Virus record (IMG/VR): IMGVR_UViG_3300037462_000746
Coordinates: 1 to 55,523 of that record
Direction: 5' to 3' (one strand)
Length of the DNA: 55,523 nt
Origin: a virus
Lineage: Duplodnaviria > Caudoviricetes
Part shown: positions 349 to 45,014 of the stretch, in pieces
Layout of the letters: every line of letters begins with the position of its first letter
Position numbering within the stretch: position 1 is the stretch's first letter
The notes under the pieces: model-generated
Databases searched by the model: none
What the model was told of the DNA's origin: nothing
The model's input: only the letters and a program-made list of their open reading frames with translations
Position numbers and translations under genes: made by a program

Positions 349-420
349 GAGCTTATAGCTCTTTTCATAATAATGTCCAACCCACAGCATTCGTGCGTCT
401 TCCTTAATGTGGGTTTTTTT
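349..420 (+). ncRNA. Candidate sRNA 2
   Basis: TTGACG(314-319)-17-TACAAT(337-342); hairpin GAGCT-TAT-AGCTC at +1; terminator AACCCACA/TGTGGGTT + T-run. Confidence 0.72.
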
Positions 421-455
421 ATTGAGTTTTTTTTGTTCTTGTTTATAATATAGAT

Positions 456-528
456 GAAGATTAAATCTTCTTTTTACAATTTTATCCAAACCTCCATGTT
501 GTCAGTATTTTTTTGGAGGTTTTTTTTT
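456..528 (+). ncRNA. Candidate sRNA 3
   Basis: TTGAGT(422-427)-16-TATAAT(444-449); hairpin GAAGAT-TAA-ATCTTC at +1; terminator AAACCTCCA/TGGAGGTTT + T-run. Confidence 0.68.
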
Positions 529-1624
529 ATTGGTAAAGATTTGTAAATTGCATGCCACCAAGGTCGTTGTCTTGCATGCGAGCTTTTTGAAATGAATCTT
601 CGGCAATTTTGCGTCTCAACTCATATAAATCTGGCTTATACATTCCGGATAATTCCATGGCTAGATGGTCAATGAATGTACCAATGTATCTTCCGTTCAT
701 ATCAACGTTGGATAAAAGGTTTTTAAAGTCAAACGGGAACTTTGCACCTCTTAGATAAAGAAAATTATAATTGGATGAATATGCCATTGATTCATTATCA
801 TCATCTACATTATTTGGCGTGCCCCACATTTGTACATTGATACGATCATTTGCTTTTTGTATTGAACAAATCGATGTTTGAGCAACGTTATTTGGTGTTG
901 TAATTTGCTGGTATGCTGATCGTCCTAAGGTTGAAATAGGGCGATTAATATTAAAGCGTTCATAATATATCTCTCTAAGGGATAGAATTTCTCCCATCGT
1001 TTCTTCAAGCTTATAATATTTGAATTCCTGTGGGGTTTGAATGGTAAACCATCTGGTATTCATAACCGTTGGCGAACCTTCAAAAGGTAATTGTCGACCC
1101 GTATCATATAATTGAACCCAACTTCCATCTAAGTTCGTATTTGATCCAGACACTTTTAAGCGATAATACGCATCTTTTGCACTTAAAACTCCGAAGCAAT
1201 TAATGGATACTGGGTTTTCAAATCCAATGGTGATTGACCCATTCGGAACAGTTTGTTCAAATTTAGTTTCAATATTATTATCAAAGGCAAACGAAGGTTG
1301 ACCATCCGGAAATGAAAAGTATTCTCCTTTACGAAATCTAACTCCAACTCGAACACTTACGTCATAAATGTTGAGTATTTCTGGTGGTAATGGATACCAA
1401 GCGCAGTTATTAATGAGTTTAACAGGTAAAAGAACTTCATTCATTTGCATGAAAAATGGATTAGTCCATTGTTTGATAATTTTATTCATCATTGCAAAGG
1501 CATTGTTTGCATGAAGAGGAGTTAACGTCTCTGGAGAAATCGATAAATATTGAAATGATTTCTCCACAACGTCAATATTACGAATTTTAAGCCCAAAGGG
1601 GTCTAAATCACTCGCAAATACCAT
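527..1624 (-). CDS. Putative head-tail connector/tail tubular protein with inserted discoidin (F5/8C)-like domain
   Basis: Last gene of capsid operon; adaptor-like N/C termini; central FENPVSI...YYRLKVSGSN...WVQLYD...FKYYKL resembles galactose-binding/discoidin domains. Confidence 0.5.
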   Translation of the reverse strand: MVFASDLDPFGLKIRNIDVVEKSFQYLSISPETLTPLHANNAFAMMNKIIKQWTNPFFMQMNEVLLPVKLINNCAWYPLPPEILNIYDVSVRVGVRFRKGEYFSFPDGQPSFAFDNNIETKFEQTVPNGSITIGFENPVSINCFGVLSAKDAYYRLKVSGSNTNLDGSWVQLYDTGRQLPFEGSPTVMNTRWFTIQTPQEFKYYKLEETMGEILSLREIYYERFNINRPISTLGRSAYQQITTPNNVAQTSICSIQKANDRINVQMWGTPNNVDDDNESMAYSSNYNFLYLRGAKFPFDFKNLLSNVDMNGRYIGTFIDHLAMELSGMYKPDLYELRRKIAEDSFQKARMQDNDLGGMQFTNLYQ

Positions 1625-1626
1625 AA

Positions 1627-1995
1627 CTAATCCATTCCAGATTTGCGTTTAGACTCTTTTTTCTTAAATTTAGTGTCTTTCATGCCAAAATTCTCTCTTT
1701 CTGAGCCTGTTTTTGGCTGAAAATAAGGATCTTCGCGATAAACTGGACCTGCTTCTTGCTTGTACATGTAATCTTCGTACATTTCACCTGCTCCAGCGAA
1801 CTCTTTTGGCGATAAAGATTCGTTAGCAAAGTTCAATTCGCGATATTCCCCACGCATTTCGGGTTTATCCCATGATTCTTTGTAAAATTGTTCAGTGTTA
1901 AATGGATTATCCATCATTTTTGAAGCAAACGGATCGGGTCCAAGGTCAATTTCCTTGTAATAGTATCCGCCTGGGCCATTATATTTTTTTAACAT
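1627..1995 (-). CDS. Hypothetical protein
   Basis: 122 aa ORF in operon, RBS AAAGGA. Confidence 0.7.
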   Translation of the reverse strand: MLKKYNGPGGYYYKEIDLGPDPFASKMMDNPFNTEQFYKESWDKPEMRGEYRELNFANESLSPKEFAGAGEMYEDYMYKQEAGPVYREDPYFQPKTGSERENFGMKDTKFKKKESKRKSGMD

Positions 1996-2011
1996 TTTTT
2001 TATCCTTTTTT

Positions 2012-2641
2012 TTATAATAGGCTTTGAGTATTAAATTGCCAATCTAACGAAACCCCAGCTTCTAAATCAATCACCTCCATGAATAATTTGGATGCAGGTT
2101 GATTTACAAGAACATAAGATGGCGTTGTGGTTGTTTCATCCTTGAGATTATCATTAACAATAAACTTTTGAGCGTCTAATTGCGCTTTAGTTAACGTATT
2201 TAAGGTAAGTAACCCATAAATACTGTATTTTACTTCACCTGAGCCGTTTACAATCACTCTATGAGAGGTTGGCGCACCATCATAAGCGATGATTTCTGTC
2301 ATTCCATCACCAGCCCCTATTGATAATGTTTGAGAATCATCTACAGGTCTTACTTGGAACGATTTGTACATATTAGCGCTGGTGACGGTTACGTTACCAT
2401 TTAACGTCAGAATTTCATTTATAGGTTGATTAAATATGGTGTAACCATTGATAAGAAGATCAAAATTTTCTCCTGACCCAGCTGTAAACTTAAGGTATCG
2501 ATAATTGTTTTGAGTAATATCAGAATATAACCAAGAATTCAAAACTAAGCCATCTTTGATGACTGGTTTAGCATTCAATATTGACGTCGTACTATATGTT
2601 GGAAAAAGACTTCTTGCTTGATAGACAATACTTGTTCCCAT
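2012..2641 (-). CDS. Putative virion structural protein
   Basis: 209 aa beta-rich ORF in capsid operon, RBS AGGAG. Confidence 0.55.
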   Translation of the reverse strand: MGTSIVYQARSLFPTYSTTSILNAKPVIKDGLVLNSWLYSDITQNNYRYLKFTAGSGENFDLLINGYTIFNQPINEILTLNGNVTVTSANMYKSFQVRPVDDSQTLSIGAGDGMTEIIAYDGAPTSHRVIVNGSGEVKYSIYGLLTLNTLTKAQLDAQKFIVNDNLKDETTTTPSYVLVNQPASKLFMEVIDLEAGVSLDWQFNTQSLL

Positions 2642-2651
2642 TTTTTATCTC

Positions 2652-3602
2652 CTAATTAACCCAAGTTTGGAAGTTTTCAGAATATGGAGTTAAACCAAGA
2701 ACAGTAGAATCATTATTGTTCAAATAATTTCTTTGTTCTAGGTCAGACGCAAACGTTGGCAAATTTCCAAAACCATAATGTTGCGTAAAGATCGTAACTA
2801 CATTTGTTCCATTAAATGGATCATTTTCATAATAAGATGTATCTCCAAACACAGGACCAAACTCAAAGTAAGGACGGGTAAATCCAGTTGTAATTGTAGG
2901 GATATTATCTTTATCACCAATATACAAAGGAGGAGAATTTGTAATTATAGGCATCCATTCACATGCAGAAGGAGGATTAGAACATGTTATTAAAGGATTT
3001 CCCATGTACAAAATCATTTTTGTAAATGACTTTGCATCATAAATAATATTGTAGGGTATTCCAAACGCGAGACCTAATGTTAGAACATAGTTTAATGTTG
3101 AAGATGATTTGTTTGTAACCTTAATGCTATTTACAAACTTTTGCGGACCAAGTCTTGAAGAGACTGATGAAGAAAATGCTTTTTTATATACCATTTTTCG
3201 GTAATATCTATCTAATCCTGATACGGTAACATCACAATCTTGATCAGTTTCAAAGTCTAATGTGCGTTCAAAATCAAGTTCTACGCATTTCCCAGTAGAT
3301 AATCCTTCTCCATTTTTTAATGTTACAAAACCTGTAAACGATGCAAAAGGAATAGTTCCCAAAGGTAAATAAACTGTAGCATTGCCTGGAATTGTTCCTA
3401 TCAATAAAGAAGAAGTAGAATAATTAGGATTAAATGAATATGGATAGACATCTCCTAAATAAATACCTCCTCCACGTCCTAAATAACCTGACCCTTGAAA
3501 CGCTCCAGCCCTAATCCCATCTTTAACGTTGGTTGGCGTTAACATGAGTTGTGAAATATTATCAGTATTTCCTGCATAAGGAATTGGTTCTAGCCCTGCC
3601 AT
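2652..3602 (-). CDS. Putative virion structural protein, paralog 3 of a triplicated family
   Basis: Shares D[FYC].R, RP.F.F, [YA]G.G and terminal W motifs with the next two genes. Confidence 0.6.
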   Translation of the reverse strand: MAGLEPIPYAGNTDNISQLMLTPTNVKDGIRAGAFQGSGYLGRGGGIYLGDVYPYSFNPNYSTSSLLIGTIPGNATVYLPLGTIPFASFTGFVTLKNGEGLSTGKCVELDFERTLDFETDQDCDVTVSGLDRYYRKMVYKKAFSSSVSSRLGPQKFVNSIKVTNKSSSTLNYVLTLGLAFGIPYNIIYDAKSFTKMILYMGNPLITCSNPPSACEWMPIITNSPPLYIGDKDNIPTITTGFTRPYFEFGPVFGDTSYYENDPFNGTNVVTIFTQHYGFGNLPTFASDLEQRNYLNNNDSTVLGLTPYSENFQTWVN

Positions 3603-4513
3603 GGTGTGAATCCTTCCGTAAAGTTGGGTTGACCGTAAACGTATTTGATTTCAGATGATACTTTACCGATTTCTGGAAGGTAATTTTCTTCATCAAGAGA
3701 TGCATTATTGAATTGTGTTGCATTACCTAATCCATATACATTCTGCAATAATGTAAATGTATATTTATTAATATTGTCATCAAAAGCTTCCCCATTTTTT
3801 AAGAATTCAAACCACGGTCTAGGGGTATTTTGAGTCAACGTTATTGGAGTTGTTTGTGCAAAAGAATAATTTCCATCCCATTTAAACGCATAGGGTTCAG
3901 CATCATTTAGCGTATTAATCCATAACCCATCATGTACATTTCCTGACAATTCGTGGTCAGCGTGAGCCGAAACTTCGAGTAATTGAGAAAGAATTCCATT
4001 ATCTGTTATGGGCAATTCAAAAATATTTGTTAACGTAAATTTAAGTGTAACGGTAACAGGTGCATCTGACGTTAAAAAAATTGAACTTAATCCCAACGTT
4101 GCTGCCAATGGATTTGTGGACGTTGAGACGTCATCTAAAACTGTTTGGTTGAATCCTATTTGTCCATAAATATCATAATATGAAATAAAAATATTAACAT
4201 TAGTCCCAGGCGCAGATGTTGCAGTAATTCGTGCTGCAATTACCCTGGAATAATCAAATACTAAAACTTTTGTTTTACCATTTAACGATTCAATTTTACC
4301 CGCAACAAATTGAGATAAGGGCACAATCGTTTTAGATGTTGGGGTTAAAGTAAATTCAGCTGTATATAAATCTACCCTTGGGTTTGGTTTTGTAATTGTA
4401 TATGGCATAGGAAGTCCGACAGGAACTCCTGGGGAAGCTTCATTAGGAATAAAAATTTGTCCTGCTGTAAAACCAGATTTAAAATTCGAGCCATTTAAAA
4501 AATAAGAGTCCAT
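3590..4513 (-). CDS. Putative virion structural protein, paralog 2
   Basis: Likely start MDSYF at 4513 (TAATG coupling to upstream stop); GVPVGLP, RPWFEF, GFTPWQ motifs. Confidence 0.6.
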   Translation of the reverse strand: MDSYFLNGSNFKSGFTAGQIFIPNEASPGVPVGLPMPYTITKPNPRVDLYTAEFTLTPTSKTIVPLSQFVAGKIESLNGKTKVLVFDYSRVIAARITATSAPGTNVNIFISYYDIYGQIGFNQTVLDDVSTSTNPLAATLGLSSIFLTSDAPVTVTLKFTLTNIFELPITDNGILSQLLEVSAHADHELSGNVHDGLWINTLNDAEPYAFKWDGNYSFAQTTPITLTQNTPRPWFEFLKNGEAFDDNINKYTFTLLQNVYGLGNATQFNNASLDEENYLPEIGKVSSEIKYVYGQPNFTEGFTPWQG

Positions 4514-7570: not shown

Positions 7571-7613
7571 AATGTGCTTGAAAGCTTTCAGTGTTAATGA
7601 TTAAATAATCATA

Positions 7614-7692
7614 GATTCATTTAGAATCCTTGATTAAAACAACCATCCCCTCGGCAGTGTTGAACTTTTCTTTATGCGAGGGGTTTTTTTTT
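7614..7692 (+). ncRNA. Candidate sRNA 4
   Basis: TTGAAA(7578-7583) with weak -10; hairpin GATTC-ATTTA-GAATC; terminator CCCCTCG/CGAGGGG + T9 on the strand opposite the flanking operon. Confidence 0.55.
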
Positions 7693-12900: not shown

Positions 12901-13554
12901 ATGAATACAGTCGATAAACCCTCTCCCGCTTTTATTTCTGAAATTTTAAAAGACGAGCTGGACTACAAGGAAAGAAAAAAGGATGAGCAAGAAAAAAAAC
13001 GTCAAGCAGTTCATCGCAAAAAAGAAATAGAAATTGCTGAAGAAGAAGTTAAGGTAGCTGGGATAATTAATTCCGAATTAGAATCAAAACCTACAATGGA
13101 AGGTCAATGGTTTATGACAAACTATGATGATCCTTTGTCAGAAATACTTAACTCTCCTCCCTATTATTATCTTATTCAAAACATTCCCGAAATACTTGTT
13201 CCTAAATTTAAACATGTTAAAAAAATTTATTTTGGAGCAAAAATGATTAAGACTCAGCATATGCAATCAAATATGGTAGCGCTGCCCATCATAATACATA
13301 AACTCTTTATAGGTTTATTAATTGAGCCACCCCAATACGAAGATATTGTCGCATCGCACAAAGCATCTGTTTCTGAATCTTCGTTTGCGTTTAATCTTGA
13401 AGAAGAATGTTACTATCGATGGTTCAACAACCTTCCAAGTCTAAAAGCATATCACGATTATATGGCGATCATAAACCAAGTGGGAATTTCGCTCCATTTT
13501 AATTACAGCCCTCAAAAACTGATTATGGCTCTCGAAAATGTTAAAGAATTCTAA
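12901..13554 (+). CDS. Hypothetical protein
   Basis: Likely start ATG 12901 after GGAG. Confidence 0.65.
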   Translation: MNTVDKPSPAFISEILKDELDYKERKKDEQEKKRQAVHRKKEIEIAEEEVKVAGIINSELESKPTMEGQWFMTNYDDPLSEILNSPPYYYLIQNIPEILVPKFKHVKKIYFGAKMIKTQHMQSNMVALPIIIHKLFIGLLIEPPQYEDIVASHKASVSESSFAFNLEEECYYRWFNNLPSLKAYHDYMAIINQVGISLHFNYSPQKLIMALENVKEF

Positions 13555-13861
13555 GGGTAGAGGAAGACCACCTAATATTGAAGAAGATTATGCACTTCTT
13601 ACAGAAGTGCATTCGATAGATGATATTCCAAGCGTTGGTATCAAAATATTGAATACACTTGGAAAGGGCAATATTAAAATAGCATCGGCTAAAAACATGT
13701 TTTATCTTTTAAAAAGCTTAGATCAGCTTGCGTATTCTTCAATGGATCGTTTGTCGAAACAAAAATTTAAACTCATATGCCAAGTGGCAGATCAAATTCA
13801 GAACAAAGGAATTTCAGCAATAGAACATGATATGGATGAAGACGATCTCATTGACTTTTAA
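13538..13861 (+). CDS. Hypothetical protein, possible terminase small subunit
   Basis: N-terminal GRGRPP, helical, acidic tail; weak assignment. Confidence 0.35.
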   Translation: MLKNSKGRGRPPNIEEDYALLTEVHSIDDIPSVGIKILNTLGKGNIKIASAKNMFYLLKSLDQLAYSSMDRLSKQKFKLICQVADQIQNKGISAIEHDMDEDDLIDF

Positions 13862-13885: not shown

Positions 13886-13954
13886 GGACAAATAACGTTC
13901 ATCTTATGTTTAAAGACATTTCAACACCCTTCGTCAACAAGAGGGTGTTTTTTT
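13886..13954 (+). ncRNA. Candidate sRNA 5
   Basis: TTGACT(13851-13856)-17-TACTCT(13874-13879); 5' hairpin GGAC/GTTC; terminator AACACCCT/AGGGTGTT + T-run. Confidence 0.6.
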
Positions 13955-13992
13955 CAATTGACTTATAAAGTCATCATGATTATGATATCCCT

Positions 13993-14081
13993 GTGAAAAA
14001 GAATGCAACTTTTTCTCAATCATTTTATTTTCTTATATTGTATAATGACTTACACCCTTTTGCAAGGAAGGGTGTTTTTTT
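13993..14081 (+). ncRNA. Candidate sRNA 6
   Basis: TTGACT(13958-13963)-17-TATGAT(13981-13986); hairpin GAAAAAG/CTTTTTC; terminator ACACCCTT/AAGGGTGT + T-run. Confidence 0.72.
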
Positions 14082-14109
14082 ATGTTTTATGCACTAAATA
14101 GATAGATGA

Positions 14110-15833: not shown

Positions 15834-15915
15834 GAAAAAAAAAGATTAATTTCAAGTTTTTTTTAAGGATGTGATTAAGACACACAACCCCATCTTGGCG
15901 CAGATGGGGTTTTTT
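15834..15915 (+). ncRNA. Possible sRNA 15 (weak promoter)
   Basis: Plus-strand terminator AACCCCATC/GATGGGGTT + T-run between two minus-strand genes; promoter match poor. Confidence 0.35.
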
Positions 15916-18080: not shown

Positions 18081-18140
18081 ACTTTGATTAATTGTTAAAA
18101 ATTGCCTATCTTAATTTAACCATATAAAAAAAGAGATTAA

Positions 18141-19514
18141 ATGAGCGAATATGACGATGAATGTTTAAACGTTCTTCCCTTTGACAATTTTATGAAAGAT
18201 GCGACAAAAGAGTTTCTTTCTAATTTAATGAAGGAAACTTTTTCAGAAAAAGAATGCCCGGTTGAAGAGAGAGTCTTGATTGACAATGAAGTATTTTTAG
18301 ACAATGAGAAATGGATAAGTCTTCTTAAAAATATAGAGGTGAAAAATCCAATTCTTTATCCTAATTTGGGTAAACCTTATACCCACTATAAGCCCGAGCC
18401 AAAATTCGAGCATTATTATATGGTTTTGGAAAATTATTATGATGGATCACTAAAGCCTTTTGATCCGTGTATTTATTATGATTTGAAGCCAAATCAGAAA
18501 CTTATAACCTCTATCTATCTGAAAAGCGCACTCGAAGACTTAAGATGGAAGGATAAAACTGCTTGGATTGAAGTTCACTTGCACTTAATAAGACTCTTTT
18601 TAGACCCAAAACTCAATGAAAAAGAATCGGATGGAAATGAACATCAAGAAAGTGAGCATTGTTTTAAATACCAAATCATGACTTATTTTAATCAGTTTGG
18701 GAAACATTTCTTTTATGAAATCTTTAGCAAAACTGAAATGAAAAGATTTTTTCAACGGTTTGAAGATTTGGATACCCTCATAGAAGATGCTAAAAACTGC
18801 CATTTAATACCTGAATCTAGTTCCAAAAATTTTGATATCAAAGACCGCAAAGATGAGGCATTTTTAGAATGGGTTTCCCTTTATGTAACGCGGGACTATT
18901 TATCTGAGGAATTAAAGCTTTTCGAAAGTAGCTTACGATCACTTTCAAGCATGATGTTGTTGATGAACTATTTCACGGATGGCATTTTGGATGAGCTTAA
19001 ATTAGACAGTTCAGAAAAAGAATTTTTCACTACCATTTTTATATCTATGGATAAAGATACTAAAGGAAAAGATCAATCCTTTGTAAAAATGATCAAAAAT
19101 GCGTGTTTGCATCATTTGTATGATTTGCGCAGCACAATACTTTCGTCATTACGCGAAAGCCCACAGTTAATTGACCACATTCATTATGAAACCTCTCTCA
19201 TACGTAAAAAGTTTAAAAACTCTAACTATCCACAAATTAGCACGGAATATCTTCTTTTCAATTGGAATAACGTTGGTTTTGTGAGCTTAAATGACCCTTT
19301 AATTTATGATGATATTGCCTACCAACCTTTAATAACTAGGATTTTACAACAAAAGAAGTTTTATGAAGAAATAAGGACTAAAGTGTTTCGAAGTGCTAAA
19401 GAATTCTACTATATAAAGGCAAGAATTAATTTTAATACTCAATTAAATCGTAATGAAACTTTAGATCAAACAACGTTTCTTGAACCCCCATATTTAGGGG
19501 GCTATAAATTATAA
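18141..19514 (+). CDS. Hypothetical protein
   Basis: 457 aa ORF. Confidence 0.75.
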   Translation: MSEYDDECLNVLPFDNFMKDATKEFLSNLMKETFSEKECPVEERVLIDNEVFLDNEKWISLLKNIEVKNPILYPNLGKPYTHYKPEPKFEHYYMVLENYYDGSLKPFDPCIYYDLKPNQKLITSIYLKSALEDLRWKDKTAWIEVHLHLIRLFLDPKLNEKESDGNEHQESEHCFKYQIMTYFNQFGKHFFYEIFSKTEMKRFFQRFEDLDTLIEDAKNCHLIPESSSKNFDIKDRKDEAFLEWVSLYVTRDYLSEELKLFESSLRSLSSMMLLMNYFTDGILDELKLDSSEKEFFTTIFISMDKDTKGKDQSFVKMIKNACLHHLYDLRSTILSSLRESPQLIDHIHYETSLIRKKFKNSNYPQISTEYLLFNWNNVGFVSLNDPLIYDDIAYQPLITRILQQKKFYEEIRTKVFRSAKEFYYIKARINFNTQLNRNETLDQTTFLEPPYLGGYKL

Positions 19515-19880
19515 ATTTTCTTCGTTCTGCGGGGGAGTGTTAACAGAAATATCCCCTATTACTTGGATGCTTTCTATGCCGCTCTTGTAAATAACTTTGG
19601 GCTTTTTTACTGGGTCTAAGATGATAATATATCGATCAAAATGACTCACCTTTCCTGAAAACTCTTTTCCGCTTTGCATTTGAATTAAAATTTCAATTCC
19701 TTGATCTTTCATGCTTTCTAAAAACATGTCTTGTACTTTAGAGGTCTGTGAAATATTTACTGGTTTTTTTTTCTTGGCAGGCGCATTGAAAGATTTTTTG
19801 AATGCAGGTTTTGAATAGCCCATTCCAGGTCTAGATGTTTGCGGACGTTGAGGGTATTCGTTGTTTGGTTGGTATGCCAT
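19509..19880 (-). CDS. hfq: Hfq-family RNA chaperone (Sm/Lsm fold) with basic N-terminal extension
   Basis: VQDMFL...G...GKV..FDRY.I.L...VIYKSGI aligns with Hfq LQDPFL...GIKLQGQIESFDQFVILL...MVYKHAI; start ATG 19880 after AGAGG. Confidence 0.9.
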   Translation of the reverse strand: MAYQPNNEYPQRPQTSRPGMGYSKPAFKKSFNAPAKKKKPVNISQTSKVQDMFLESMKDQGIEILIQMQSGKEFSGKVSHFDRYIIILDPVKKPKVIYKSGIESIQVIGDISVNTPPQNEENL

Positions 19881-20646: not shown

Positions 20647-21351
20647 ATGAGCCAAAATATTGAACTTAGTACCCCAAAGCCAGAAACTTCCGAAATGCAT
20701 GAAAACATGTTTAAGGAGATGACTCCCACCATTAATTATAACGATCTTGAAACATTACTTGGACAAATTTCTTTAGAAATGACGAACTTTGATGAGCTCC
20801 TTAAAGCTGTTATAGATAATGCAATAGACAAAAAAGAAGACATGTTTCCAGCATGTATAGGATTGCTCAAAAGATATCATCTTATTGAAAAGCTACATTT
20901 AGAGGTAGTGAACGCTAAACCTCAAGAAGAATATGCACGTTATGTATTAATGAGAATTTTTTTAGCGGCTTTGATGGCAGTTATTTTTGAAATATGTTTA
21001 TACAAAGAAGCAGGCGAATTGAAACCTCTGCGTCCATTTTACATGCTTTACGCAACTTGTTATATGAAGTTTAATAGCCCTAAGTTTCATTTTCCCGATG
21101 ATTTTATTCATGAATTTGCCTTTATGGAAGAATATGTGTCTTCTATTAATCCATGTTTGGGCGAGCCATTTTTCAAAAAAAGTTTATTTAAAGCGAGCGC
21201 ACAAGATGTAATAGATATAATAAAAGTCTTTATTGATGGATTAAAAACCATCAAAAAACGGTCATATGCTCAAAAAAAAGACACCGATACACTAAAATAC
21301 ACTTATCCATATGTATCGTTTATGTACGAACCTAAGCAACAATCTAATTAA
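20647..21351 (+). CDS. Hypothetical protein, paralog of next gene
   Basis: Extensive similarity to 21367-22107. Confidence 0.8.
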   Translation: MSQNIELSTPKPETSEMHENMFKEMTPTINYNDLETLLGQISLEMTNFDELLKAVIDNAIDKKEDMFPACIGLLKRYHLIEKLHLEVVNAKPQEEYARYVLMRIFLAALMAVIFEICLYKEAGELKPLRPFYMLYATCYMKFNSPKFHFPDDFIHEFAFMEEYVSSINPCLGEPFFKKSLFKASAQDVIDIIKVFIDGLKTIKKRSYAQKKDTDTLKYTYPYVSFMYEPKQQSN

Positions 21352-23829: not shown

Positions 23830-25404
23830 ATGAGCGTATATTCTAACCCTTTAGGTGAGTTTGCAAGGGCAATTCCGATCCAATCGGGTGCTAACCTTGA
23901 TATGACCAAGTTTTCTTCAACGATGTGGATAGATTCCCAACACACAAGATGGGATAATGGGTATCCACGAAAAATGGGAGGAAGGCAGCTTGTAGATTTC
24001 GGAAATGATTCAATTGCACGAGCCATTTACGTCAACATCGTAGACGACAATCGACGTTATATTTTGATGAAAGACAACTCCATCATACAAATTGATGTAA
24101 ACCCGGAGGGAAATATAACAGCCATTCGAAATCGGACACCCGTTGGTTGGGAATTACCCGAAGCAGGCAATAATTATAATTATTCCTTTACTGAATTTTC
24201 ACGCACTACGACCAATGATGGTATAATTGCTTCTCTTGTGTTTTTTTTCTTTGTGCCCCTTGAAAACGCCAAAAACCCATTAACAAATAAAGAAAAACAA
24301 ATTTATTTTGGACGTATCGATCAAGATACGCCATTTATACCTTATGAGGCATTTGTTGCAGACAATCCTACTCAAAAACCTGTTAAAACTTCAGGGGGTG
24401 TTATTGAATCAACTCAAAGGTTAATTATTTATGGAAATGGGGGGCTAATTTACTATACCGAAGTAAATAATTTTGATGTGATTCCAATTGCAAACATTTC
24501 TGCGGGGGGGTCATTAAAAATACTTGCGGCAAGACCATACCGCGGGTCAATTTTGTTTTGGTCGCCAGAGGTGTTGTTTGGAGGCACCTTTACATCCCTT
24601 GGATTAAATCTCGAACGACTTACAAGCATGACCATTGTAAGTCCTACATCCATTATAGATGGAAGAAATTCAACCTATTACTGGATGGGCTTAAATCAGA
24701 TGTATGCCTTTAACGGAGCGCTTCAGACTTTCCAAAACGATAATAACCGCAATTATTTATACGAAAAGTTGAATCGCAATTACTTAGGAAACTGCTGGGG
24801 AATGTTCTTAGAAAGTTTCACTGAGCTTGCATGGTTTGTGCCACAAAACGATGACAAAGAGGCATCGCTTTGTATTATACACAATATGGAAGAAAAAACA
24901 TGGTATAAAACCATTCTAAATAGGTCATGTGGACTGACTACGGGTGTAGCACCCTACCCTGTAATGGGTGATAACCAATTTCTTCCTGGCTTTCTTCAAA
25001 ACAATTATCCTATTTGGTATGAAGACAAAGGTTTAAATCAAGTCATCGAAGGTATTGCCTACCCAATTGAGGCTTGGGTTGAGTCGAACATGTTTAGGAC
25101 ATACCTTGATAGTGTTCAAGCTAATCTTGCAGTTGTGTTAAGACGTTTGGAGAAGAATATTAATCAAATAGGAGATATGTACCTTGAGGTTAAGTATTAC
25201 AATTATCCTGACTCAGAAGCCTCTACCCTAGACCCTATAGTATTTCAACCCTCCACAACAAACATTAACTTTTCCCTAGAATCCAGTATTTTTAGTTTCA
25301 AATTTGTTTCAAACACTATTGATGGATTTTATCAATTTGGACCGTTGGTGATTAACTACCAAAACGGAAATGCAAGACCTACGGTTTCTTTTACAGGTGA
25401 ATGA
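23830..25404 (+). CDS. Putative tail hub/tubular (DNA-stabilization, P22 gp10-like) protein
   Basis: W.D...RW..G.PRKMGG N-terminus, YWMG...Y.FNG, WF.P motifs. Confidence 0.65.
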   Translation: MSVYSNPLGEFARAIPIQSGANLDMTKFSSTMWIDSQHTRWDNGYPRKMGGRQLVDFGNDSIARAIYVNIVDDNRRYILMKDNSIIQIDVNPEGNITAIRNRTPVGWELPEAGNNYNYSFTEFSRTTTNDGIIASLVFFFFVPLENAKNPLTNKEKQIYFGRIDQDTPFIPYEAFVADNPTQKPVKTSGGVIESTQRLIIYGNGGLIYYTEVNNFDVIPIANISAGGSLKILAARPYRGSILFWSPEVLFGGTFTSLGLNLERLTSMTIVSPTSIIDGRNSTYYWMGLNQMYAFNGALQTFQNDNNRNYLYEKLNRNYLGNCWGMFLESFTELAWFVPQNDDKEASLCIIHNMEEKTWYKTILNRSCGLTTGVAPYPVMGDNQFLPGFLQNNYPIWYEDKGLNQVIEGIAYPIEAWVESNMFRTYLDSVQANLAVVLRRLEKNINQIGDMYLEVKYYNYPDSEASTLDPIVFQPSTTNINFSLESSIFSFKFVSNTIDGFYQFGPLVINYQNGNARPTVSFTGE

Positions 25405-25646: not shown

Positions 25647-25975
25647 TGGACTTGCACCTTAAAACTTTGAAAGACTTTAAAAATGATCTTATTAAAATGC
25701 GCGATCAATCCTTAGATCGATTTATTTTCAGTGAATTATCCGATAAAGAAATCCACGAAATCAGAGGTATGGTATTGGGGATATCAAAAATACTATTAAA
25801 CTTACAAAATATCCTTGATGACTATTTAAAAAACTCTGATTTACCCTATAATTTACGAATCCTCGAAGAAGAAGCCAAGAAGTATAATATTGGCATGTCT
25901 GATTCTGGGGCTGAATTGAAAGGAAAATACAATGAAAACTCATCCAATCATATCAAATATGAACATATTTATTAA
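25646..25975 (+). CDS. Hypothetical protein
   Basis: Start MDLHLK by TAATG coupling. Confidence 0.6.
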   Translation: MDLHLKTLKDFKNDLIKMRDQSLDRFIFSELSDKEIHEIRGMVLGISKILLNLQNILDDYLKNSDLPYNLRILEEEAKKYNIGMSDSGAELKGKYNENSSNHIKYEHIY

Positions 25976-26273
25976 ACTTCTTAAAATCAATAAGGAATTT
26001 CTTAAACTTCGCAAAGAAAAAATTCGCTTACGCTTTGGCAGGTATATCTCTGAAAGCATCCCAATTAAATTTCTTATTCTTGCTCAAATATGCCTTTTTC
26101 TAGCATTAGGTCATGAAAAGCATCTAGATAGCTATATCAAAATTTTTGGTCAAGCATCTTATCAAACATTTTTAGTATGGATAGCTGGGCTATTTATAGG
26201 TGCTTATTTTTCAGAATTAAACATCTATTTAAAAGATGCAGAAGCCAATGATTGGCGCGCACCCGATTTTTAG
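25932..26273 (+). CDS. Small membrane protein (2 TM)
   Basis: Two hydrophobic segments. Confidence 0.5.
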   Translation: MKTHPIISNMNIFIKLLKINKEFLKLRKEKIRLRFGRYISESIPIKFLILAQICLFLALGHEKHLDSYIKIFGQASYQTFLVWIAGLFIGAYFSELNIYLKDAEANDWRAPDF

Positions 26274-26584: not shown

Positions 26585-26768
26585 AGCTATAATGTCTATC
26601 CCAATATTCATAGCTTTCATAGCGAATGGTATAAGTTTAATTCCTTTCGCTATGCCCCATGAATACGACTTACATCGATGGGAGAAAAAACAACTTATGA
26701 TAGTCTTATTTTATTTCATGACGAACCTTCTAAGCGCATATGCAGGGGTTTGTTTAATATTATTTTAA
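26571..26768 (+). CDS. Small membrane protein (2 TM), holin candidate
   Basis: 65 aa, two hydrophobic segments. Confidence 0.5.
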   Translation: MTLTKAIMSIPIFIAFIANGISLIPFAMPHEYDLHRWEKKQLMIVLFYFMTNLLSAYAGVCLILF

Positions 26769-26779
26769 GGAGATCAATA

Positions 26780-26947
26780 ATGCACAACCGTTTAGAAGCA
26801 GTTTTTGTAGGATTGCTTGGGTCAGTTCTTTTGCTCAATCTCTCTATATATACAAGAACGGACAAGCAGGAAATAATTAATGCAATTATGCTTTTACTTT
26901 TTGCAATTCTGCTCAAAATAATACACGATTTAAGGAAAAAAGACTGA
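26780..26947 (+). CDS. Small membrane protein (2 TM, basic C-terminus), holin candidate
   Basis: ATG after AAGGAG; 55 aa ending LRKKD. Confidence 0.55.
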   Translation: MHNRLEAVFVGLLGSVLLLNLSIYTRTDKQEIINAIMLLLFAILLKIIHDLRKKD

Positions 26948-30145: not shown

Positions 30146-30148
30146 TAC

Positions 30149-30250
30149 AAAAAGCGGAATCTTTTAGTTGCTTGCTAAAGAACATGGGATTCCGCTTTTA
30201 AATGCGTTGTTAAAAAGAAATCTAAACAACTTTTTAACAAAGGAGATCGC
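30149..30250 (-). ncRNA. Candidate sRNA 7 (5' anti-SD GAUCUCCUU)
   Basis: TTGCAT(30285-30280)-17-TATTAT(30262-30257); 11-bp hairpin; terminator GCGGAATC/GATTCCGC + U-run (bidirectional). Confidence 0.65.
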
Positions 30251-30286
30251 ATAAGGATAATATGTTAAAAAATTATTGGATGCAAT

Positions 30287-30389
30287 AAAAAAACCGCCAA
30301 CCTCAAGATATTAGATCACATATATAAAAAAAGGGGCGGTTGTGTCAAATATTATAAAAGAACCACTAAACATATAAATGTGAAATGGC
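30287..30389 (-). ncRNA. Candidate sRNA 8
   Basis: TTGAAT-16-(TGG)TAAGAT(30401-30396); hairpin at +1; terminator AACCGCC/GGCGGTT + U-run. Confidence 0.65.
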
Positions 30390-30425
30390 ACAATAATCTT
30401 ACCATACCATGGATTATATTCAACT

Positions 30426-30516
30426 AAAAAAAACCGCCTCTTAAAAAATCAAATAACAAAGGGAGACGGTTATATAAAATTAATATAAGTAAGTCATAGT
30501 AGTTTGAATCAACTAC
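30426..30516 (-). ncRNA. Candidate sRNA 9
   Basis: TTTACA(30551-30546)-17-TAAGAT(30528-30523); hairpin GTAGTT/AACTAC at +1; terminator AACCGTCTC/GAGGCGGTT + U-run. Confidence 0.68.
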
Positions 30517-30565
30517 ATATTTATCTTACCGTATAAGTAATACCTTGTAAAGGTAGTTTTCTCGG

Positions 30566-34092: not shown

Positions 34093-34134
34093 TTTTTTTT
34101 ATTTATTGTAACGCGTCTAGATCAGGAAAGAAAG

Positions 34135-34227
34135 AAAAAAACCTGCCGAAATACAAAACATGAAAGGCAGGTTGCGTTAAGTTAACGATATTTGATTAAG
34201 AATCTTTAATGATAATTCTCTAGATTC
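34135..34227 (-). ncRNA. Candidate sRNA 10
   Basis: TTGTTA(34262-34257)-17-TAAACT(34239-34234); hairpin GAATCT/AGATTC at +1; terminator AACCTGCC/GGCAGGTT + U-run. Confidence 0.68.
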
Positions 34228-34263
34228 ATCATTAGTTTACGTGTTTGCAGAACGTTTAACAAT

Positions 34264-34356
34264 AAAAAAACCCGCCAAAATAAGAAAAAAAAGGCGGGTG
34301 ACACTAAAAACAATCTTTACTTTGAAAGGTTTTTTAACAAAAATGAATAAAAAACT
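34264..34356 (-). ncRNA. Candidate sRNA 11
   Basis: TAGACC(34391-34386)-17-TAGTAT(34368-34363); 5' hairpin; terminator ACCCGCC/GGCGGGT + U-run (also ends the early operon). Confidence 0.55.
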
Positions 34357-34360: not shown

Positions 34361-34996
34361 TTATACTATCACATTATGTTTCTTAGGTCTACCTTTTTGG
34401 TTTTCCTTTCCAAAGAAATGACACCAATTTACCCATCCCTTATCTTTGTAAATTTTATAAGGTTGATAGGGTAAATTTCTGGGTCTTCTTCTACGGTAGT
34501 CTATGATAGATTTAATTCCTTTCTCAATAAGGTATTTTCTTGCTTTTTCGAACGGCAAAAACTGTTTACGATATATCCCATATCCATCTTTTTCACAAGG
34601 AATGCCGTTTTCATCGATCTTACCAAAAAAATGCATCCAACTCATCCATCCTTTGTTTCTATATTTTTCTCTTGGATTTGACGGCAAGTTATAGGGTTTT
34701 CGTGCGTTTTTAAATTGATTAATCGATTTTATATTATTCTCTCTAATCCACTTTTCCGCCTCTTTATAGGACATAAATTCTTTTTTATTAAACGCATCTT
34801 TATCTTTGCCCAAAAAATCAAACCAATTTGTCCAACCCTTTTTTTTATAAGCGTAAGCAGGGTCGTTAGGCATATTCTTAGGTTTGGTCATTTTCTTCCA
34901 TTCAACAGCGGTTTGCACTTCAAGGCTTTGTGCGAACATTTTGCAACGCTCAAAACTTATATATTTAGATTTCCTTTTTTTTCGTATTTTACTCAT
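34361..34996 (-). CDS. Protein with three integrase-repeat-unit (INT_rpt)-like domains, putative DNA binding
   Basis: 3x F/Y..A.....L.IKS......P.NLP..P...Y...GW..W..F.GK. Confidence 0.7.
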   Translation of the reverse strand: MSKIRKKRKSKYISFERCKMFAQSLEVQTAVEWKKMTKPKNMPNDPAYAYKKKGWTNWFDFLGKDKDAFNKKEFMSYKEAEKWIRENNIKSINQFKNARKPYNLPSNPREKYRNKGWMSWMHFFGKIDENGIPCEKDGYGIYRKQFLPFEKARKYLIEKGIKSIIDYRRRRPRNLPYQPYKIYKDKGWVNWCHFFGKENQKGRPKKHNVIV

Positions 34997-37248: not shown

Positions 37249-37253
37249 TTTAC

Positions 37254-40204: not shown

Positions 40205-40346
40205 ACCTTATTTCTTCTGAAAAGTTAGGAATCTTTTCCTTTAAATCTTCATACATACTTTTCAACCAAAGTCTTGCATTATTAAGGCTAGCCTCGCGTG
40301 TTTTCTCATCATCAATGCTCATTGACCCTTTTTCCCTTCTGTTCAT
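40101..40346 (-). CDS. Hypothetical protein
   Basis: 81 aa; overlaps previous ORF. Confidence 0.45.
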   Translation of the reverse strand: MNRREKGSMSIDDEKTREASLNNARLWLKSMYEDLKEKIPNFSEEIRFDKRKSPGSHCKKSFSPLYLSQHPTKGKVDNKNG

Positions 40347-40349
40347 AAT

Positions 40350-41093: not shown

Positions 41094-41683
41094 GGCTCCC
41101 TTATTCCTTCCAGTTTAATCACATTTTTAGAGCTATCGTATCCATATAAAATCATAGAGAAATACATCAGAAGGATTGTGCCGTTCCTGCCATCGGAATT
41201 GTGAGGTTGTATTGAACGATATAGAGTGTCCAATTCGTTAGCATTCATAATTAAAACATCATTTTTATTAATATCAAACTTCCTATACCTTGAACTAAAA
41301 AAACCATCCTTGGGGTTTGGAACTTCAATCTGCAATGTAATTTCTCTGTTTTTAATCGCAGTGAGAATGTCGTGCCGCATCAATCCAATTAATAATGATT
41401 TTGCTATTTTATCATATACTTGTATTTGCCACTTTATAGGGTAAAAACTTGTATCAATAAATCGCCAGTCAGCCTTTTCCTTGATCATACAACCTGGAGG
41501 CAACTTGCATAAAAATATACACCCCCTTTTCATATCCACATTGTCTTTAAGGTATTTGTGTCCTTCACCATCAGCCCCCAACAAATAAACAAGCCCTTCA
41601 GCAGCGTTCACAAAAAATGTAACGCGAACTACCTTTGGCGTTGGATATTCTTTATCTGGCATGTCTACAAGTTTAGAGTCCAT
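41072..41683 (-). CDS. Hypothetical protein, early family B
   Basis: VRVTFFV / VYLL..D. Confidence 0.7.
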   Translation of the reverse strand: MDSKLVDMPDKEYPTPKVVRVTFFVNAAEGLVYLLGADGEGHKYLKDNVDMKRGCIFLCKLPPGCMIKEKADWRFIDTSFYPIKWQIQVYDKIAKSLLIGLMRHDILTAIKNREITLQIEVPNPKDGFFSSRYRKFDINKNDVLIMNANELDTLYRSIQPHNSDGRNGTILLMYFSMILYGYDSSKNVIKLEGIREPWRNSQR

Positions 41684-41688
41684 TTCCT

Positions 41689-42360
41689 TTATCCTCTGTC
41701 TTTTTGATCTCTAATCGTTAAAAACTTTCCTTCTAACCTATACTCTCTTCTATCAAAATCAAACTTAGTACGCGTTATGTGTGTGTATTCATTAAAAGAA
41801 AATGGCATACCAGGTTTAGTATCTCCTTCGTTACCTTCGTCTATGCTTTCCATCATGTCCAAAGCAGTCTGTCGTAACCCTTTTAATACTTCATGTAAGA
41901 AAAACTTACTAAAGTAAAACGTTTCTTCCGTTTCTTCTTTGGTCTCCAGGTAAAAAGCTATTCCATCGTCCGGAAATTTCATTTGGAAATTATCCGTAAG
42001 CCTAATCATTGCTTTGTAAAGACCTTCTGCTATTTTTTCAAAAAAATGTTTACGATCAAGCTTATTTTCCCAAAAGTTATTCTCTAATAAAGTTAAAGCA
42101 TCGGGATAATAAGAACCAATACATTGATAAACACATAACGTTCCTTCATCAAATACTTCTTTATATTCCTTGAACGTCTCTTCCTTTTGTTCCTGGGTGT
42201 GACAAAAATCTAGATACTGTTCCTTAATCACAGAAGTAATATAGTCCTTTGTTGGCTTATCCTTTGCAAATACCCTTAATACCCATAATGTAGGTGTATC
42301 TTTCTCAACACTGATGCTTATACCTAATTCAATTCGTTCAATTTCATTCGTCATTTTCAT
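41689..42360 (-). CDS. Hypothetical protein, early family B
   Basis: Start after AAAGGAGA; IELGISI / RVFAKD.PT...I. Confidence 0.7.
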   Translation of the reverse strand: MKMTNEIERIELGISISVEKDTPTLWVLRVFAKDKPTKDYITSVIKEQYLDFCHTQEQKEETFKEYKEVFDEGTLCVYQCIGSYYPDALTLLENNFWENKLDRKHFFEKIAEGLYKAMIRLTDNFQMKFPDDGIAFYLETKEETEETFYFSKFFLHEVLKGLRQTALDMMESIDEGNEGDTKPGMPFSFNEYTHITRTKFDFDRREYRLEGKFLTIRDQKDRG

Positions 42361-42367
42361 TCTCCTT

Positions 42368-42769
42368 TTAACATTCAATAATATATACTGGTTTATTAAA
42401 CATATTACACATGACATGGGATAGCGAATCCCTGTCGAGGTTATCTATTTGAGGCACAACACTAATTGATTTCGCATCCACATAATGCTTAAAACCGCGT
42501 ATTGTTTTCCAAAGCTTTTCCTGCTGGTTAATTGCATCAAGAACTACAGCCAAGTTAAACGTATCCCGTCCTGGATACCACACCCTTTCATCTGATATAA
42601 AGGTATCGCCGTGTATGATTTTTTCAGTGTATGGTAGGTATAAAGTATAGCTGAATATAATACCGCTCCTTTTCTCATCCCACCCATACCAATTTCTATA
42701 GTCGTTAATTACTATTGTTAGTTCTTTCTCACAGTCATAGTTAAAAAGTTTTTGTGCTAAATTCGTCAT
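42368..42769 (-). CDS. Hypothetical protein, early family A paralog
   Basis: Ends MFNKPVYII; preceded by repeated leader. Confidence 0.75.
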   Translation of the reverse strand: MTNLAQKLFNYDCEKELTIVINDYRNWYGWDEKRSGIIFSYTLYLPYTEKIIHGDTFISDERVWYPGRDTFNLAVVLDAINQQEKLWKTIRGFKHYVDAKSISVVPQIDNLDRDSLSHVMCNMFNKPVYIIEC

Positions 42770-42793
42770 TTTGGATCTCCTATCCGTTGGTTT

Positions 42794-43219
42794 TTATAAT
42801 ATGTGTACTGGTATATTAAAATACTCTTCCTTGATGTACTTAATAGCTTCAGGCGTTAAGCGACCAAATTCTATTCCACAAATAATAACTATCTTTTCAA
42901 ACCAGATATCTTCTGGCTTCCAAAGAAGACTACCACCTTTACTTAGGTTTTCCCAAAGTTTATATCGTTTGTTTAACTTATCCAGAATAAGTTTTATTTG
43001 ATCTCTCGATACTTCAAGATTGGTTGAATCCGTTCCCCACTCATCGCAAATAATATAAAGCTCATCCTTGTATAATATGTTTTCGTTGATGATTAGCGCA
43101 TATGAAGTTTCTACCCAATTTTCACAATCATTCCTAACGATATTCCATGAAATTTCGTTTAGACATATAGTAATTGAGTTTTTTCTCAAATTTATCTTGT
43201 TTCTTTCTATATTGTTCAT
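42794..43219 (-). CDS. Hypothetical protein, early family A paralog
   Basis: Ends EYFNIPVHIL. Confidence 0.75.
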   Translation of the reverse strand: MNNIERNKINLRKNSITICLNEISWNIVRNDCENWVETSYALIINENILYKDELYIICDEWGTDSTNLEVSRDQIKLILDKLNKRYKLWENLSKGGSLLWKPEDIWFEKIVIICGIEFGRLTPEAIKYIKEEYFNIPVHIL

Positions 43220-43240
43220 TCTTTTACTCCTATTCGTTGG

Positions 43241-43651
43241 TTAAATAACCTTAAAGGGTGTTTCAAAATAATGTTCTTGTAAGTTTTTAGCCGAATCCTC
43301 GCTTACTTCTCCAATATGGCTTACAAACTCAATGCCTTTAACTTTGTTGCAGCTTGGTTCATATTTTCTACCGTTGAAAAACCAAGCAGCTTCTTTTTTA
43401 CCTATTTTGTTGAAGATATTAACTATATTTGAAAGCTTTAACTCATCTTGATTTTCGACCTCATAATCATACTCCCAATCATCCTCATAAATAACTATCT
43501 CATCATGTATAGGTAAGCCACCAGGCATCTGTATTGAATAAAATATATACAATATATCGCTAAAGTTTTCCCTGTCTGCGCTTAGCTCGGTATCATGTAA
43601 TACCACATGCATTACCTCGGTTAGTTCGTTGAATTTCTTTGCATTTTTCAT
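43241..43651 (-). CDS. Hypothetical protein, early family A paralog
   Basis: Ends HYFETPFKVI. Confidence 0.75.
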   Translation of the reverse strand: MKNAKKFNELTEVMHVVLHDTELSADRENFSDILYIFYSIQMPGGLPIHDEIVIYEDDWEYDYEVENQDELKLSNIVNIFNKIGKKEAAWFFNGRKYEPSCNKVKGIEFVSHIGEVSEDSAKNLQEHYFETPFKVI

Positions 43652-43677
43652 AATGGATCTCCTATCCGTTGGTTTCT

Positions 43678-44091
43678 TTAGTTATCAATTTTCCGTTTAA
43701 TCACTAATCTCTCAATAGTTGTGTGCATCACAGTTATAGGACATTTAAACAATTCATCCAAACCATCGTAGGTTTTCCTTGATACATTTTTAATATCAAC
43801 AGTCAATGTTAGCTCAGCGATATTATCAACCTTACCTAAAGCCTTCATCTTTTTAATGATACTTTTAACTATAGGGCGAATGTCGTATTCGCTGTCCCAG
43901 CGGTTATTCAATAGGGCATCATAATAAGAAAGATATAAGCGACTGTTTTCATATTCATAAAGCGTGCGGCTTTCTTCACCACGTATTGCATAGTCATAGT
44001 CAAAAAAATACTTAGCTTTACCCTTTCCTGCATTGGTAATATTTATACAAACTTCTTTTAATTCGGTTTTTAATTCTGTGTTTATAGTCAT
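43678..44091 (-). CDS. Hypothetical protein, early family A paralog
   Basis: Start MTINTE at 44091 after repeated leader; LFKCPITVM. Confidence 0.75.
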   Translation of the reverse strand: MTINTELKTELKEVCINITNAGKGKAKYFFDYDYAIRGEESRTLYEYENSRLYLSYYDALLNNRWDSEYDIRPIVKSIIKKMKALGKVDNIAELTLTVDIKNVSRKTYDGLDELFKCPITVMHTTIERLVIKRKIDN

Positions 44092-44113
44092 AATGGATCT
44101 CCTATCCGTTGGT

Positions 44114-44515
44114 TTAAACAAATTTTACAGGGGTTGAAAAGTATTCGATGGCTATCTTTTTTCTGGCAGCTTCACTTATAGGAGGAACTTCAGAAACAAT
44201 ACTAATCGTATCAGCTGTAAGACAAGCATTGCGCCCATCTTCACCTTCAGCCCACAGTTTATGCTTATCATTGATTCTATTAAGTATATGTTTTAAGGTT
44301 GAATAAGTTACGTTACCGTTTTTGCTAGCTTCTCTCCAATTTTTGGAAACAACCCAAACTGAATGATCATGGCTAACAACTTCTAATTGATCTTTTCCAC
44401 GATAACCATGTTGATAATAAATAACGTATACATCTTTGCCGTTGTGATCTTCCGTTATTACATAATCATATATACATAGTTCTAAAGTGCTTTGGTTTGA
44501 AAGTTTTTCTAACAT
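44114..44515 (-). CDS. Hypothetical protein, early family A paralog (first gene of operon)
   Basis: Ends EYFSTPVKFV. Confidence 0.75.
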   Translation of the reverse strand: MLEKLSNQSTLELCIYDYVITEDHNGKDVYVIYYQHGYRGKDQLEVVSHDHSVWVVSKNWREASKNGNVTYSTLKHILNRINDKHKLWAEGEDGRNACLTADTISIVSEVPPISEAARKKIAIEYFSTPVKFV

Positions 44516-44544
44516 GATATAGACTCCAATTTGTTTACATCCTT

Positions 44545-44573
44545 AACTTACCATCAAAAATGTATACATACAA
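44545..44573 (-). promoter_or_regulatory. Sigma70-like early promoter overlapped by palindrome ATGTATACAT
   Basis: TTGTAT-17-(TGG)TAAGTT upstream of the 10-kb leftward operon. Confidence 0.55.
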
Positions 44574-44904
44574 ATAAAAATTTCTTTATATATACATTTT
44601 ATTAGAAAATAGTATATTTGTTGCAATTATACAACATTCTAATTTTTCAAAACATTACTAATATAATCCAGTATTTCCAAGCCATTCTCTTACCACAATT
44701 CCAAGCCAAAACCCAATCTTAATCCAAAACCGATAGTTTTTATCTAGGTCAAACAAGTGCTAAAATACTCTATTTTAATATATTACTTGTATTTAATGTA
44801 TGTACACGAGTATTTGCTATAGTTTAATGTTATACATTTCATTTGATATACCGTTTAAACTAATAATGATTGATTATTTGCGCGTTAGCGCCTAAAATTT
44901 CCAT

Positions 44905-45014
44905 GTACTGCGAAAGTACAACTGTAATAAATGATAGGCAGACTGTCTTTATTCTTTATTTTTTGTTAGCATATTTCACTCCAACCCGCTTATGTCATTT
45001 CGCGGGTTTTTTTT
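44905..45014 (+). ncRNA. Candidate sRNA 12
   Basis: TTGATT(44870-44875)-17-TAAAAT(44893-44898); hairpin GTACT/AGTAC at +1; terminator AACCCGC/GCGGGTT + T-run. Confidence 0.7.

Follow-up and report, generated by a model that had tools for sequence, protein, structure and literature searches.

Candidate small RNA cassettes in a phage that encodes Hfq, with a possible target in its own early-gene leaders

The stretch of DNA considered here, hereafter the window, is an entire virus record of 55,523 bases (IMG/VR record IMGVR_UViG_3300037462_000746; Duplodnaviria, Caudoviricetes) that carries a gene for Hfq and 14 cassettes, U1 to U14, with the predicted layout of small RNA (sRNA) genes: a promoter, a short 5' hairpin, an unpaired A/U-rich linker, a large-loop terminator hairpin and a U tail. 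These cassettes, listed as sRNA1 to sRNA14 in a preliminary description of the window, are most likely genuine phage sRNA genes, the products of which would work at the start regions of mRNAs together with the phage Hfq. We regard the chances as about even that they make up a phage-run, Hfq-assisted sRNA system that represses translation, and a single target has comparative support, the leader of the phage's own early genes. In the mechanism that we propose, host RNA polymerase would make the cassette RNAs from sigma-70-type promoters, the phage Hfq would hold them through the U tail and the linker, and translation would be repressed by pairing to regions that contain the Shine-Dalgarno (SD) sequence and the start codon. 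By pairing to the early-gene leaders, the U7 seed would switch off the array of early paralogues at a set time.

The U7 seed and the early-gene leaders

U7 (30148–30284, minus strand) is predicted to give an RNA of about 30249–30148 that opens with a single-stranded 5' seed, CGAUCUCCUU, and continues with an 11-bp hairpin and a terminator at 30198–30151 (fold z-score −4.3). The seed word GAUCUCCU (30239–30249, minus strand) is complementary to the SD sequence of the early genes, AGGAGAUC. The early paralogue genes, whose leaders carry AACGGAUAGGAGAUC, lie on the minus strand at 42767–44103, with SD words at 42781–42774, 43663–43656 and 44103–44096, and a fourth AGGAGAUC start site is found on the plus strand at 26768–26782 (SD 26768–26775), before an ATG at 26780. 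The word AGGAGATC occurs six times in the window: one copy belongs to the U7 gene itself, three lie in the leaders of the early genes, which are nearly identical, one precedes the ATG at 26780 and one is found elsewhere, so that start sites make up four of the five non-self occurrences.

The same arrangement is present in a sister phage, G001, a complete 58,026-base IMG/VR record with direct terminal repeats that is collinear with the window at about 45–80% amino acid identity per gene (roughly 70% overall). There the U7 seed reads AAUCUCCU, the early-gene SD AGGAGAUU and the leader AGGAGATT, with sites at 21315–21322 and 1421–1428, and AGGAGATC does not occur anywhere in that genome; in all other positions the two phages have the same leader, AACCAACGGATAGGAGAT. 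In both, U7 follows the GroEL region and opens with a free 5' seed, to which a hairpin, unrelated in sequence between the two, and a GCGGAAU terminator are added; this three-part fold is the same although both stems differ in sequence. Read from these two genomes, seed and leader appear as a natural compensatory pair, and the early-gene leaders are likely targets of the U7 seed. By reading only, U1 and its counterpart in the sister phage could also pair with the leader AACCAACGGATAGGAGAT.

A phage-encoded Hfq

The Hfq gene of the window (19509–19880, minus strand) encodes a protein of 123 aa that scores 47.6 bits against Pfam PF17209, for which the cut-off is 27. Its equivalent in the sister phage (30103–30438) shows 49% identity, and six further relatives show 61–79%. 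A search of viral contigs with the Hfq alignment gave no match, the protein has no PHROG family, and comparison with 50,697 phage records yielded one weak match (MT835489.1), in the first 50 kb of which tandem large-loop units were not found. The phrases "phage-encoded Hfq" and "viral Hfq" appeared in no paper turned up by literature searching.

The presence of many U-tailed RNAs with strong promoters together with a phage Hfq would also suit RNAs that serve as decoys or sponges for host Hfq, or as cargo that loads the phage Hfq, so that titration rather than base pairing would be their function; phage sRNAs that compete for Hfq are described in PMC12197685. Titration does not explain why the U7 seed is conserved or why it shows a compensatory change, and we consider it very improbable.

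Cassette design and genomic setting

Units were found by a scan for G+C-rich hairpins followed by a T-run, with loops of up to 50 nt allowed, together with a promoter scan and predicted folds. A terminator hairpin with a T-run is present on the assigned strand in all 14 units; its loop measures 11–36 nt in 12 of them, and the T-run has at least six residues in 13 (U7 has five). Promoter-like sites matching at least 9 of 12 positions lie at the right distance in 10 of the 14 units. At a score of at least 10 of 12 the window holds 34 such sites, five of them at units, which occupy about 1% of the strand space. Fold z-scores range from −2.2 to −4.3 in the five units tested, and the linkers are unpaired in the predicted folds.

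Where units form arrays, the U tail of one abuts the ATTG(AC) −35 element of the next promoter. The word TTTTTTATTG occurs seven times against 1.78 expected, six of the seven being at unit 3' ends, and junctions of this type between tail and −35 element lie at 307–316, 415–424, 523–532, 30283–30292, 34260–34269 and 45009–45018. Most units run towards, or lie antisense to, the genes that flank them. At least nine end facing a convergent gene on the opposite strand, and for this reason they are not leaders or tails of mRNAs.

The sister phage has 14 large-loop terminator units of its own, all with loops of at least 11 nt and including arrays of two to four, that are only partly syntenic with those of the window, and a third relative, known from a short contig, has two tandem units with one stem in common and different loops. 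Loops and linkers cannot be aligned between the window and the sister phage, U7 excepted. Among close relatives, cassettes have been acquired, lost or relocated.

The most enriched non-stem 4-mer of the units in the window and the sister phage is TCAT, with 23 occurrences against 11.1 expected (z 3.9, about twofold). It often stands in the linker or directly 5' of the terminator stem, and its enrichment is partly due to tandem paralogues in the sister phage. A CAU placed right before the terminator stem was considered as a motif and dropped: it is seen in 5 of the 14 units of the sister phage, and four of these are tandem paralogues.

Start-like words on the antisense strand

The preliminary description had held that single-stranded parts of several units are antisense to ideal translation start sites, and had called for a test of enrichment against dinucleotide shuffles. 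We counted antisense SD-N3-10-AUG words in the units against dinucleotide shuffles. In the window four were counted, against 1.56 expected with hand-set units (P = 0.064), 1.70 with rule-set units (P = 0.089) and 1.96 with stems kept fixed (P = 0.057); a loose definition gave nine against 5.8 (P = 0.12). The sister phage alone has six against 1.64–2.15 expected (P = 0.002–0.013). With both phages pooled, the count was 10 against 4.11 when stems were kept fixed (P = 0.002) and nine against 3.67 when paralogues were dropped (P = 0.002), and four definitions of the word, A to D, gave 10 against 3.33 (P = 0.001), 6 against 1.52 (P = 0.005), 20 against 7.32 (P < 0.001) and 8 against 1.79 (P < 0.001), respectively. 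The excess is weak in the window alone and modest but reproducible once the sister phage is added, since the rule was fixed before that genome was scored. An enrichment of this kind does not reach significance in the window taken by itself (P 0.057–0.089) and does emerge on pooling (10 against 3.3–4.1, P 0.001–0.002). The same description had cautioned that CAU is common by chance in AT-rich RNA; CAU alone was counted 18 times in the window units against 19.7 expected, with no enrichment.

In the predicted folds, just three of the 10 pooled sites are free of pairing along their whole length. They lie in the U2 loop, in the U12 linker and at the 5' end of the U7 homologue of the sister phage, and the CAU of the last may lie upstream of the RNA start. 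For four of the 10, what counts as spacer is the terminator's 5' arm, which is paired and directly flanked by CAU on its 5' side and CUU on its 3' side. Anti-SD 4-mers by themselves show no enrichment in the units (19 against 17.4 expected and 25 against 20.6). The resemblance of the flagged stretches to antisense start sites is partly a by-product of terminator anatomy, in which a CAU, a C-rich 5' arm and a loop beginning with CUU follow one another.

On another reading the cassettes are mere punctuation: strong promoters joined to terminators, which would keep convergent operons insulated or tie up RNA polymerase and whose RNAs would have no target in trans. The start-like antisense words would then come from base composition and terminator anatomy. 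The position of units at operon boundaries and between convergent genes, the paired terminator arm that serves as spacer, the failure of loops and linkers other than those of U7 to align between the phages, and the lack of a significant excess in the window alone all fit such modules. They do not account for a U7 seed conserved together with its compensatory partner or for an Hfq gene retained in both phages; insulation needs neither the constant design of 5' hairpin and linker nor large loops, and the excess holds when stems are kept fixed in the shuffle. We judge punctuation unlikely as a full account of the cassettes, a role as sRNA genes being preferred.

A further reading takes the antisense words at face value, as true starts of tiny genes on the opposite strand. 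In the antisense of U2, AAGGAAG-8-AUG stands ahead of a frame of 21 codons, and one site in the sister phage opens a frame of 39 codons; the remaining eight frames run to only 3–11 codons, and the frames of one phage are not conserved in the other. Tiny genes of this kind seem to us extremely improbable.

The flagged stretches and the search for their targets

Five stretches had been singled out in the preliminary description as antisense to start sites: the U2 linker (362–378), UUUUCAUAAUAAUGUCC, with the reverse complement GGACAUUAUUAUGAAAA; the U2 loop (387–407), GCAUUCGUGCGUCUUCCUUAA, with the reverse complement UUAAGGAAGACGCACGAAUGC; a stretch of U6 (14015–14036; reverse complement AUAAGAAAAUAAAAUGAUUGAG); the U10 loop (about 34149–34166, minus strand; reverse complement AAAUACAAAACAUGAAAG); and the U12 linker (44966–44982; reverse complement GGAGUGAAAUAUGCUAA). 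The letters are exact in all five, and four are mostly unpaired, with mean unpaired probabilities of 0.91 for the U2 linker, 0.80 for the U2 loop, 0.81 for the U10 loop and 0.91 for the U12 linker. The U6 stretch reaches 0.59, and its CAU is paired (unpaired probability 0.08). What held less well is their quality as start sites. An SD 4-mer 3–10 nt upstream of AUG, taken here as the canonical arrangement, is present in only two of the five, the U2 loop (AGGAAG-8-AUG) and the U12 linker (GGAG-7-AUG), the remaining three depending on GGAC, AAGAAAA or GAAA; the same arrangement is found at 35 of 65 phage gene starts in a crude start set. On the modelled folds, the U2 loop and the U12 linker would be the only fully exposed canonical anti-start sites among the flagged stretches. 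A word reported as common to sRNA12 and sRNA14 is real: a 12-mer at 44978–44989 and 45335–45346, made up of 5 nt of linker and the 7-nt 5' arm of the terminator. None of the flagged stretches is conserved in the sister phage.

Targets within the phage were sought by comparing 31 unpaired segments with 65 phage start windows, using 20 shuffles of each segment and 166 internal coding windows as controls. The number of shuffles that at least equalled the segment was 4 for the U2 linker, 13 for the U2 loop, 13 for the U6 stretch, 20 for the U10 loop and 18 for the U12 linker, and none of the five fitted a phage start beyond what shuffling gives. Complementarity of a loop to a ribosome-binding site of the phage itself, as in the c4 RNA discussed below, was not found, the flagged U2 and U10 loops doing no better than shuffles. 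When the 10 pooled antisense sites were compared with the starts of their own genomes they matched 13–18 of 25 positions, and real starts compared among themselves have a mean best match of 15.9–16.5. Exact complementary words of at least 10 nt elsewhere in each genome were only AT-rich 10- to 15-mers, few of them at starts (for example 18122–18133) and about as many as chance would give. Duplex energies of whole units against 65 start and 311 internal windows had also been computed; they were dominated by the GC-rich terminator arms and gave equal means, and the unpaired-segment test took their place.

Outside the phage, the complement of an 18-mer from the U2 loop has 10 exact hits in the genomes of 185,579 species, with about 17 expected at uniform base composition. 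The hits lie in unrelated lineages (metagenome-assembled genomes and other genomes), mostly of 46–70% G+C, and four are at frames of at least 140 aa. An exact 18-mer scan is ill suited to testing a seed that acts in trans, and shows only that nothing stands out.

These results bear on the proposal, made in the preliminary description, that exposed loops and linkers are guides against the SD and AUG of host mRNAs, for example those of defence genes, whose translation they would block. In its favour, the excess of start-like antisense words recurs in the sister phage and holds under four definitions, the U2 loop and the U12 linker combine exposure with the canonical arrangement, an Hfq is encoded by the phage itself, and none of the 10 sites matches its own genome's starts beyond the likeness of one start to another, which leaves room for targets elsewhere. 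The proposal is weakened by the lack of conservation of the flagged stretches (even U3, a paralogue of U2, has UAC in its linker in place of the CAU of U2), by the chance-level hits of the U2 loop in unrelated, mostly high-GC genomes, and by the 7 of 10 antisense sites that are not unpaired throughout. Guidance against host starts appears improbable to us; host targeting by the flagged stretches is possible and found no support here. We are similarly doubtful of a mixed arrangement, in which a virulent-type phage with its own Hfq and about 14 sRNAs would use some of them to time its own early genes and others (U2, U12) to shut host translation initiation generically. What survives of the guide proposal is that the units look like real sRNA genes, that their antisense words as a class beat shuffles when the sister phage is added, and that the anti-SD seed of U7 is conserved. 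The choice of the host as target fared worse, as the comparatively supported seed pairs with the phage's own early leaders and the flagged stretches are unconserved, the best of them, the U2 loop, giving chance-level, scattered 18-mer hits.

Several observations weigh against the system of Hfq-assisted sRNAs with an early-gene target that we prefer. The compensatory change between U7 and the leader is a single position in one pair of genomes, and the match itself is not rare, since 5 of 20 seed shuffles did equally well against phage starts. All 166 internal controls were beaten by 7 of the 31 unpaired segments, against 8.7 expected, so that phage starts are no better partners overall. The promoter scan gave no site for U4, U5, U10 and U11; U5 and U11 may do no more than terminate mRNAs; and every 5' end given for a cassette RNA is a prediction. 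Lastly, the pooled antisense excess (P about 0.001–0.005) suits the view of the preliminary description better than would be expected and is not fully explained.

Individual units

U1 to U3 form an array on the plus strand near the left end of the window. U1 (219–316) has a promoter-like site, TTGACT-17-TATTCT, a predicted RNA of about 60 nt and a terminator at 288–308. U2 (314–422) has TTGACG-17-TACAAT and a predicted RNA of about 349–422, with a 5' hairpin at 349–361, the linker described above and a terminator at 379–415 that encloses the 21-nt flagged loop (fold z-score −3.0). Its paralogue U3 (422–531) has TTGAGT-16-TATAAT, a predicted RNA of about 456–531 and a terminator at 488–522. Also on the plus strand, U4 (7612–7692) lies between two minus-strand genes and consists of a 5' hairpin, a linker and a terminator at 7647–7683. 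U5 (13886–13956, terminator 13923–13949) may be the terminator of the gene at 13538–13861 or a unit of its own; it is followed by U6 (13958–14083), with TTGACT-17-TATGAT, a predicted RNA of about 13993–14083, a terminator at 14052–14075 and a fold z-score of −3.0, in which the flagged stretch is partly paired. At 15886–15911 (plus strand) a 10-bp hairpin with a T-run stands between two minus-strand genes, with no clear promoter seen there; it may be a further unit or an antisense terminator.

On the minus strand, U7 is joined by U8 (30285–30378), with TTTATA-16-TATAAT and a predicted RNA of about 60 nt that is a single hairpin with a 36-nt loop (30341–30292), and by U9 (30424–30551), with TTTACA-17-TAAGAT, a predicted RNA of about 30516–30424 and a terminator at 30471–30432 whose 22-nt loop begins with CCUUUG. 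U10 (34133–34228) has a terminator at 34173–34140, the 18-nt loop of which is the flagged stretch, and U11 (34262–34330), with a terminator at 34299–34270 and a U-rich 16-nt loop, may simply end the gene at 34361–34996. The last three units again lie on the plus strand: U12 (44870–45016), with TTGATT-17-TAAAAT, a predicted RNA of about 44905–45016, a terminator at 44983–45008 that directly follows the flagged linker, and a fold z-score of −2.6; U13 (45016–45263), with TTGACT-17-TATTTT, a predicted multi-hairpin RNA of about 213 nt and a terminator at 45225–45258; and U14 (45263–45395), with TTTACA-17-TACAAT, a predicted RNA of about 45298–45395 and a terminator at 45340–45387, which has ACUCCAACCCGC in common with U12.

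The phage and its relatives

The window has a G+C content of 35% and encodes a large terminase, a portal protein, tail genes and a GroEL-like chaperonin; the SD words of its genes are AGGAG or AAAGGA. The ends of the record, 55372–55523 and 1–152, repeat each other over about 150 bases with one mismatch, and 54960–218 is therefore one GH108 endolysin gene that spans them. The hydrophobic N-terminus of the encoded protein hints at a Gram-negative host.

No DNA match to the window was found among the 50,697 phage records, and its terminase and GroEL have at most 30% identity to anything in them. A terminase search of viral contigs, with the single protein and then with an alignment, gave the sister phage, one 28%-identical record without Hfq and nothing else; the corresponding search of genome contigs gave no match, and a search of metagenome contigs with the neighbouring gene gave one contig of 1.5 kb. 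Rfam covariance models gave no match in the window at the gathering score and, at E values up to 1, two matches, both outside the units.

A search for tRNA genes found none in the window. In the sister phage a tRNA-Met lies at the left end (4–80, minus strand), and there is also an odd tRNA-like gene (L011 1638–1709, minus strand), with a four-base anticodon according to ARAGORN, in the place that U4 takes in the window. The sister phage further has pairs of units at 25912–26085 (plus strand) and 24461–24626 (minus strand), where the window has none, and the converse is also seen.

Relation to known systems

The Hfq-binding module of sRNAs consists of a terminator with its poly-U tail and an upstream U-rich site. 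As predicted, the units resemble Hfq-dependent sRNAs in having their own promoter, a length of 60–210 nt and an intrinsic terminator with a U tail, and also in the A/U-rich stretch before the terminator and in a seed that could pair with an SD region. They differ from them in number, with about 14 cassettes, many of them head-to-tail, in the loops of 11–36 nt, and in being known from sequence alone. Phage sRNAs that repress at ribosome-binding sites and use the Hfq of the host have already been described, and lambda PreS, VP882 VpdS and DicF are among those that act with host Hfq (PMC12197685); unlike these, the cassettes studied here have a phage-encoded Hfq at hand.

A second parallel is the c4 antisense RNA of phages P1 and P7, which, according to PMC12197685, keeps an mRNA of its own phage from being translated by pairing around the ribosome-binding site through sequences thought to lie in loops. 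The U7 seed would likewise pair with the ribosome-binding region of the phage's own mRNA. It differs from c4 in being a free 5' end, and the flagged loops have no partner in their own phage; nor does anything here point to processing out of a longer operon transcript. In staphylococci, RNAIII and the Rsa sRNAs use C-rich seeds in hairpin loops against SD sequences. Several terminator loops of the window similarly begin with C/U-rich sequence (CCUUU or CUCCCUUU) and could kiss an SD; a point of difference is the lack of enrichment of anti-SD 4-mers in the units.

As far as the part of PMC12197685 at hand covers them, the phage sRNAs described so far borrow the Hfq of their host. The claim that the cassettes guide repression of host mRNAs adds little for now. 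The pairing of the U7 seed with the early-gene leader offers a clean test case, as it already comes with a natural compensatory change. If the proposed system is real, a chaperone and a dozen cassette-built sRNAs in one phage would amount to a compact, portable riboregulation kit.

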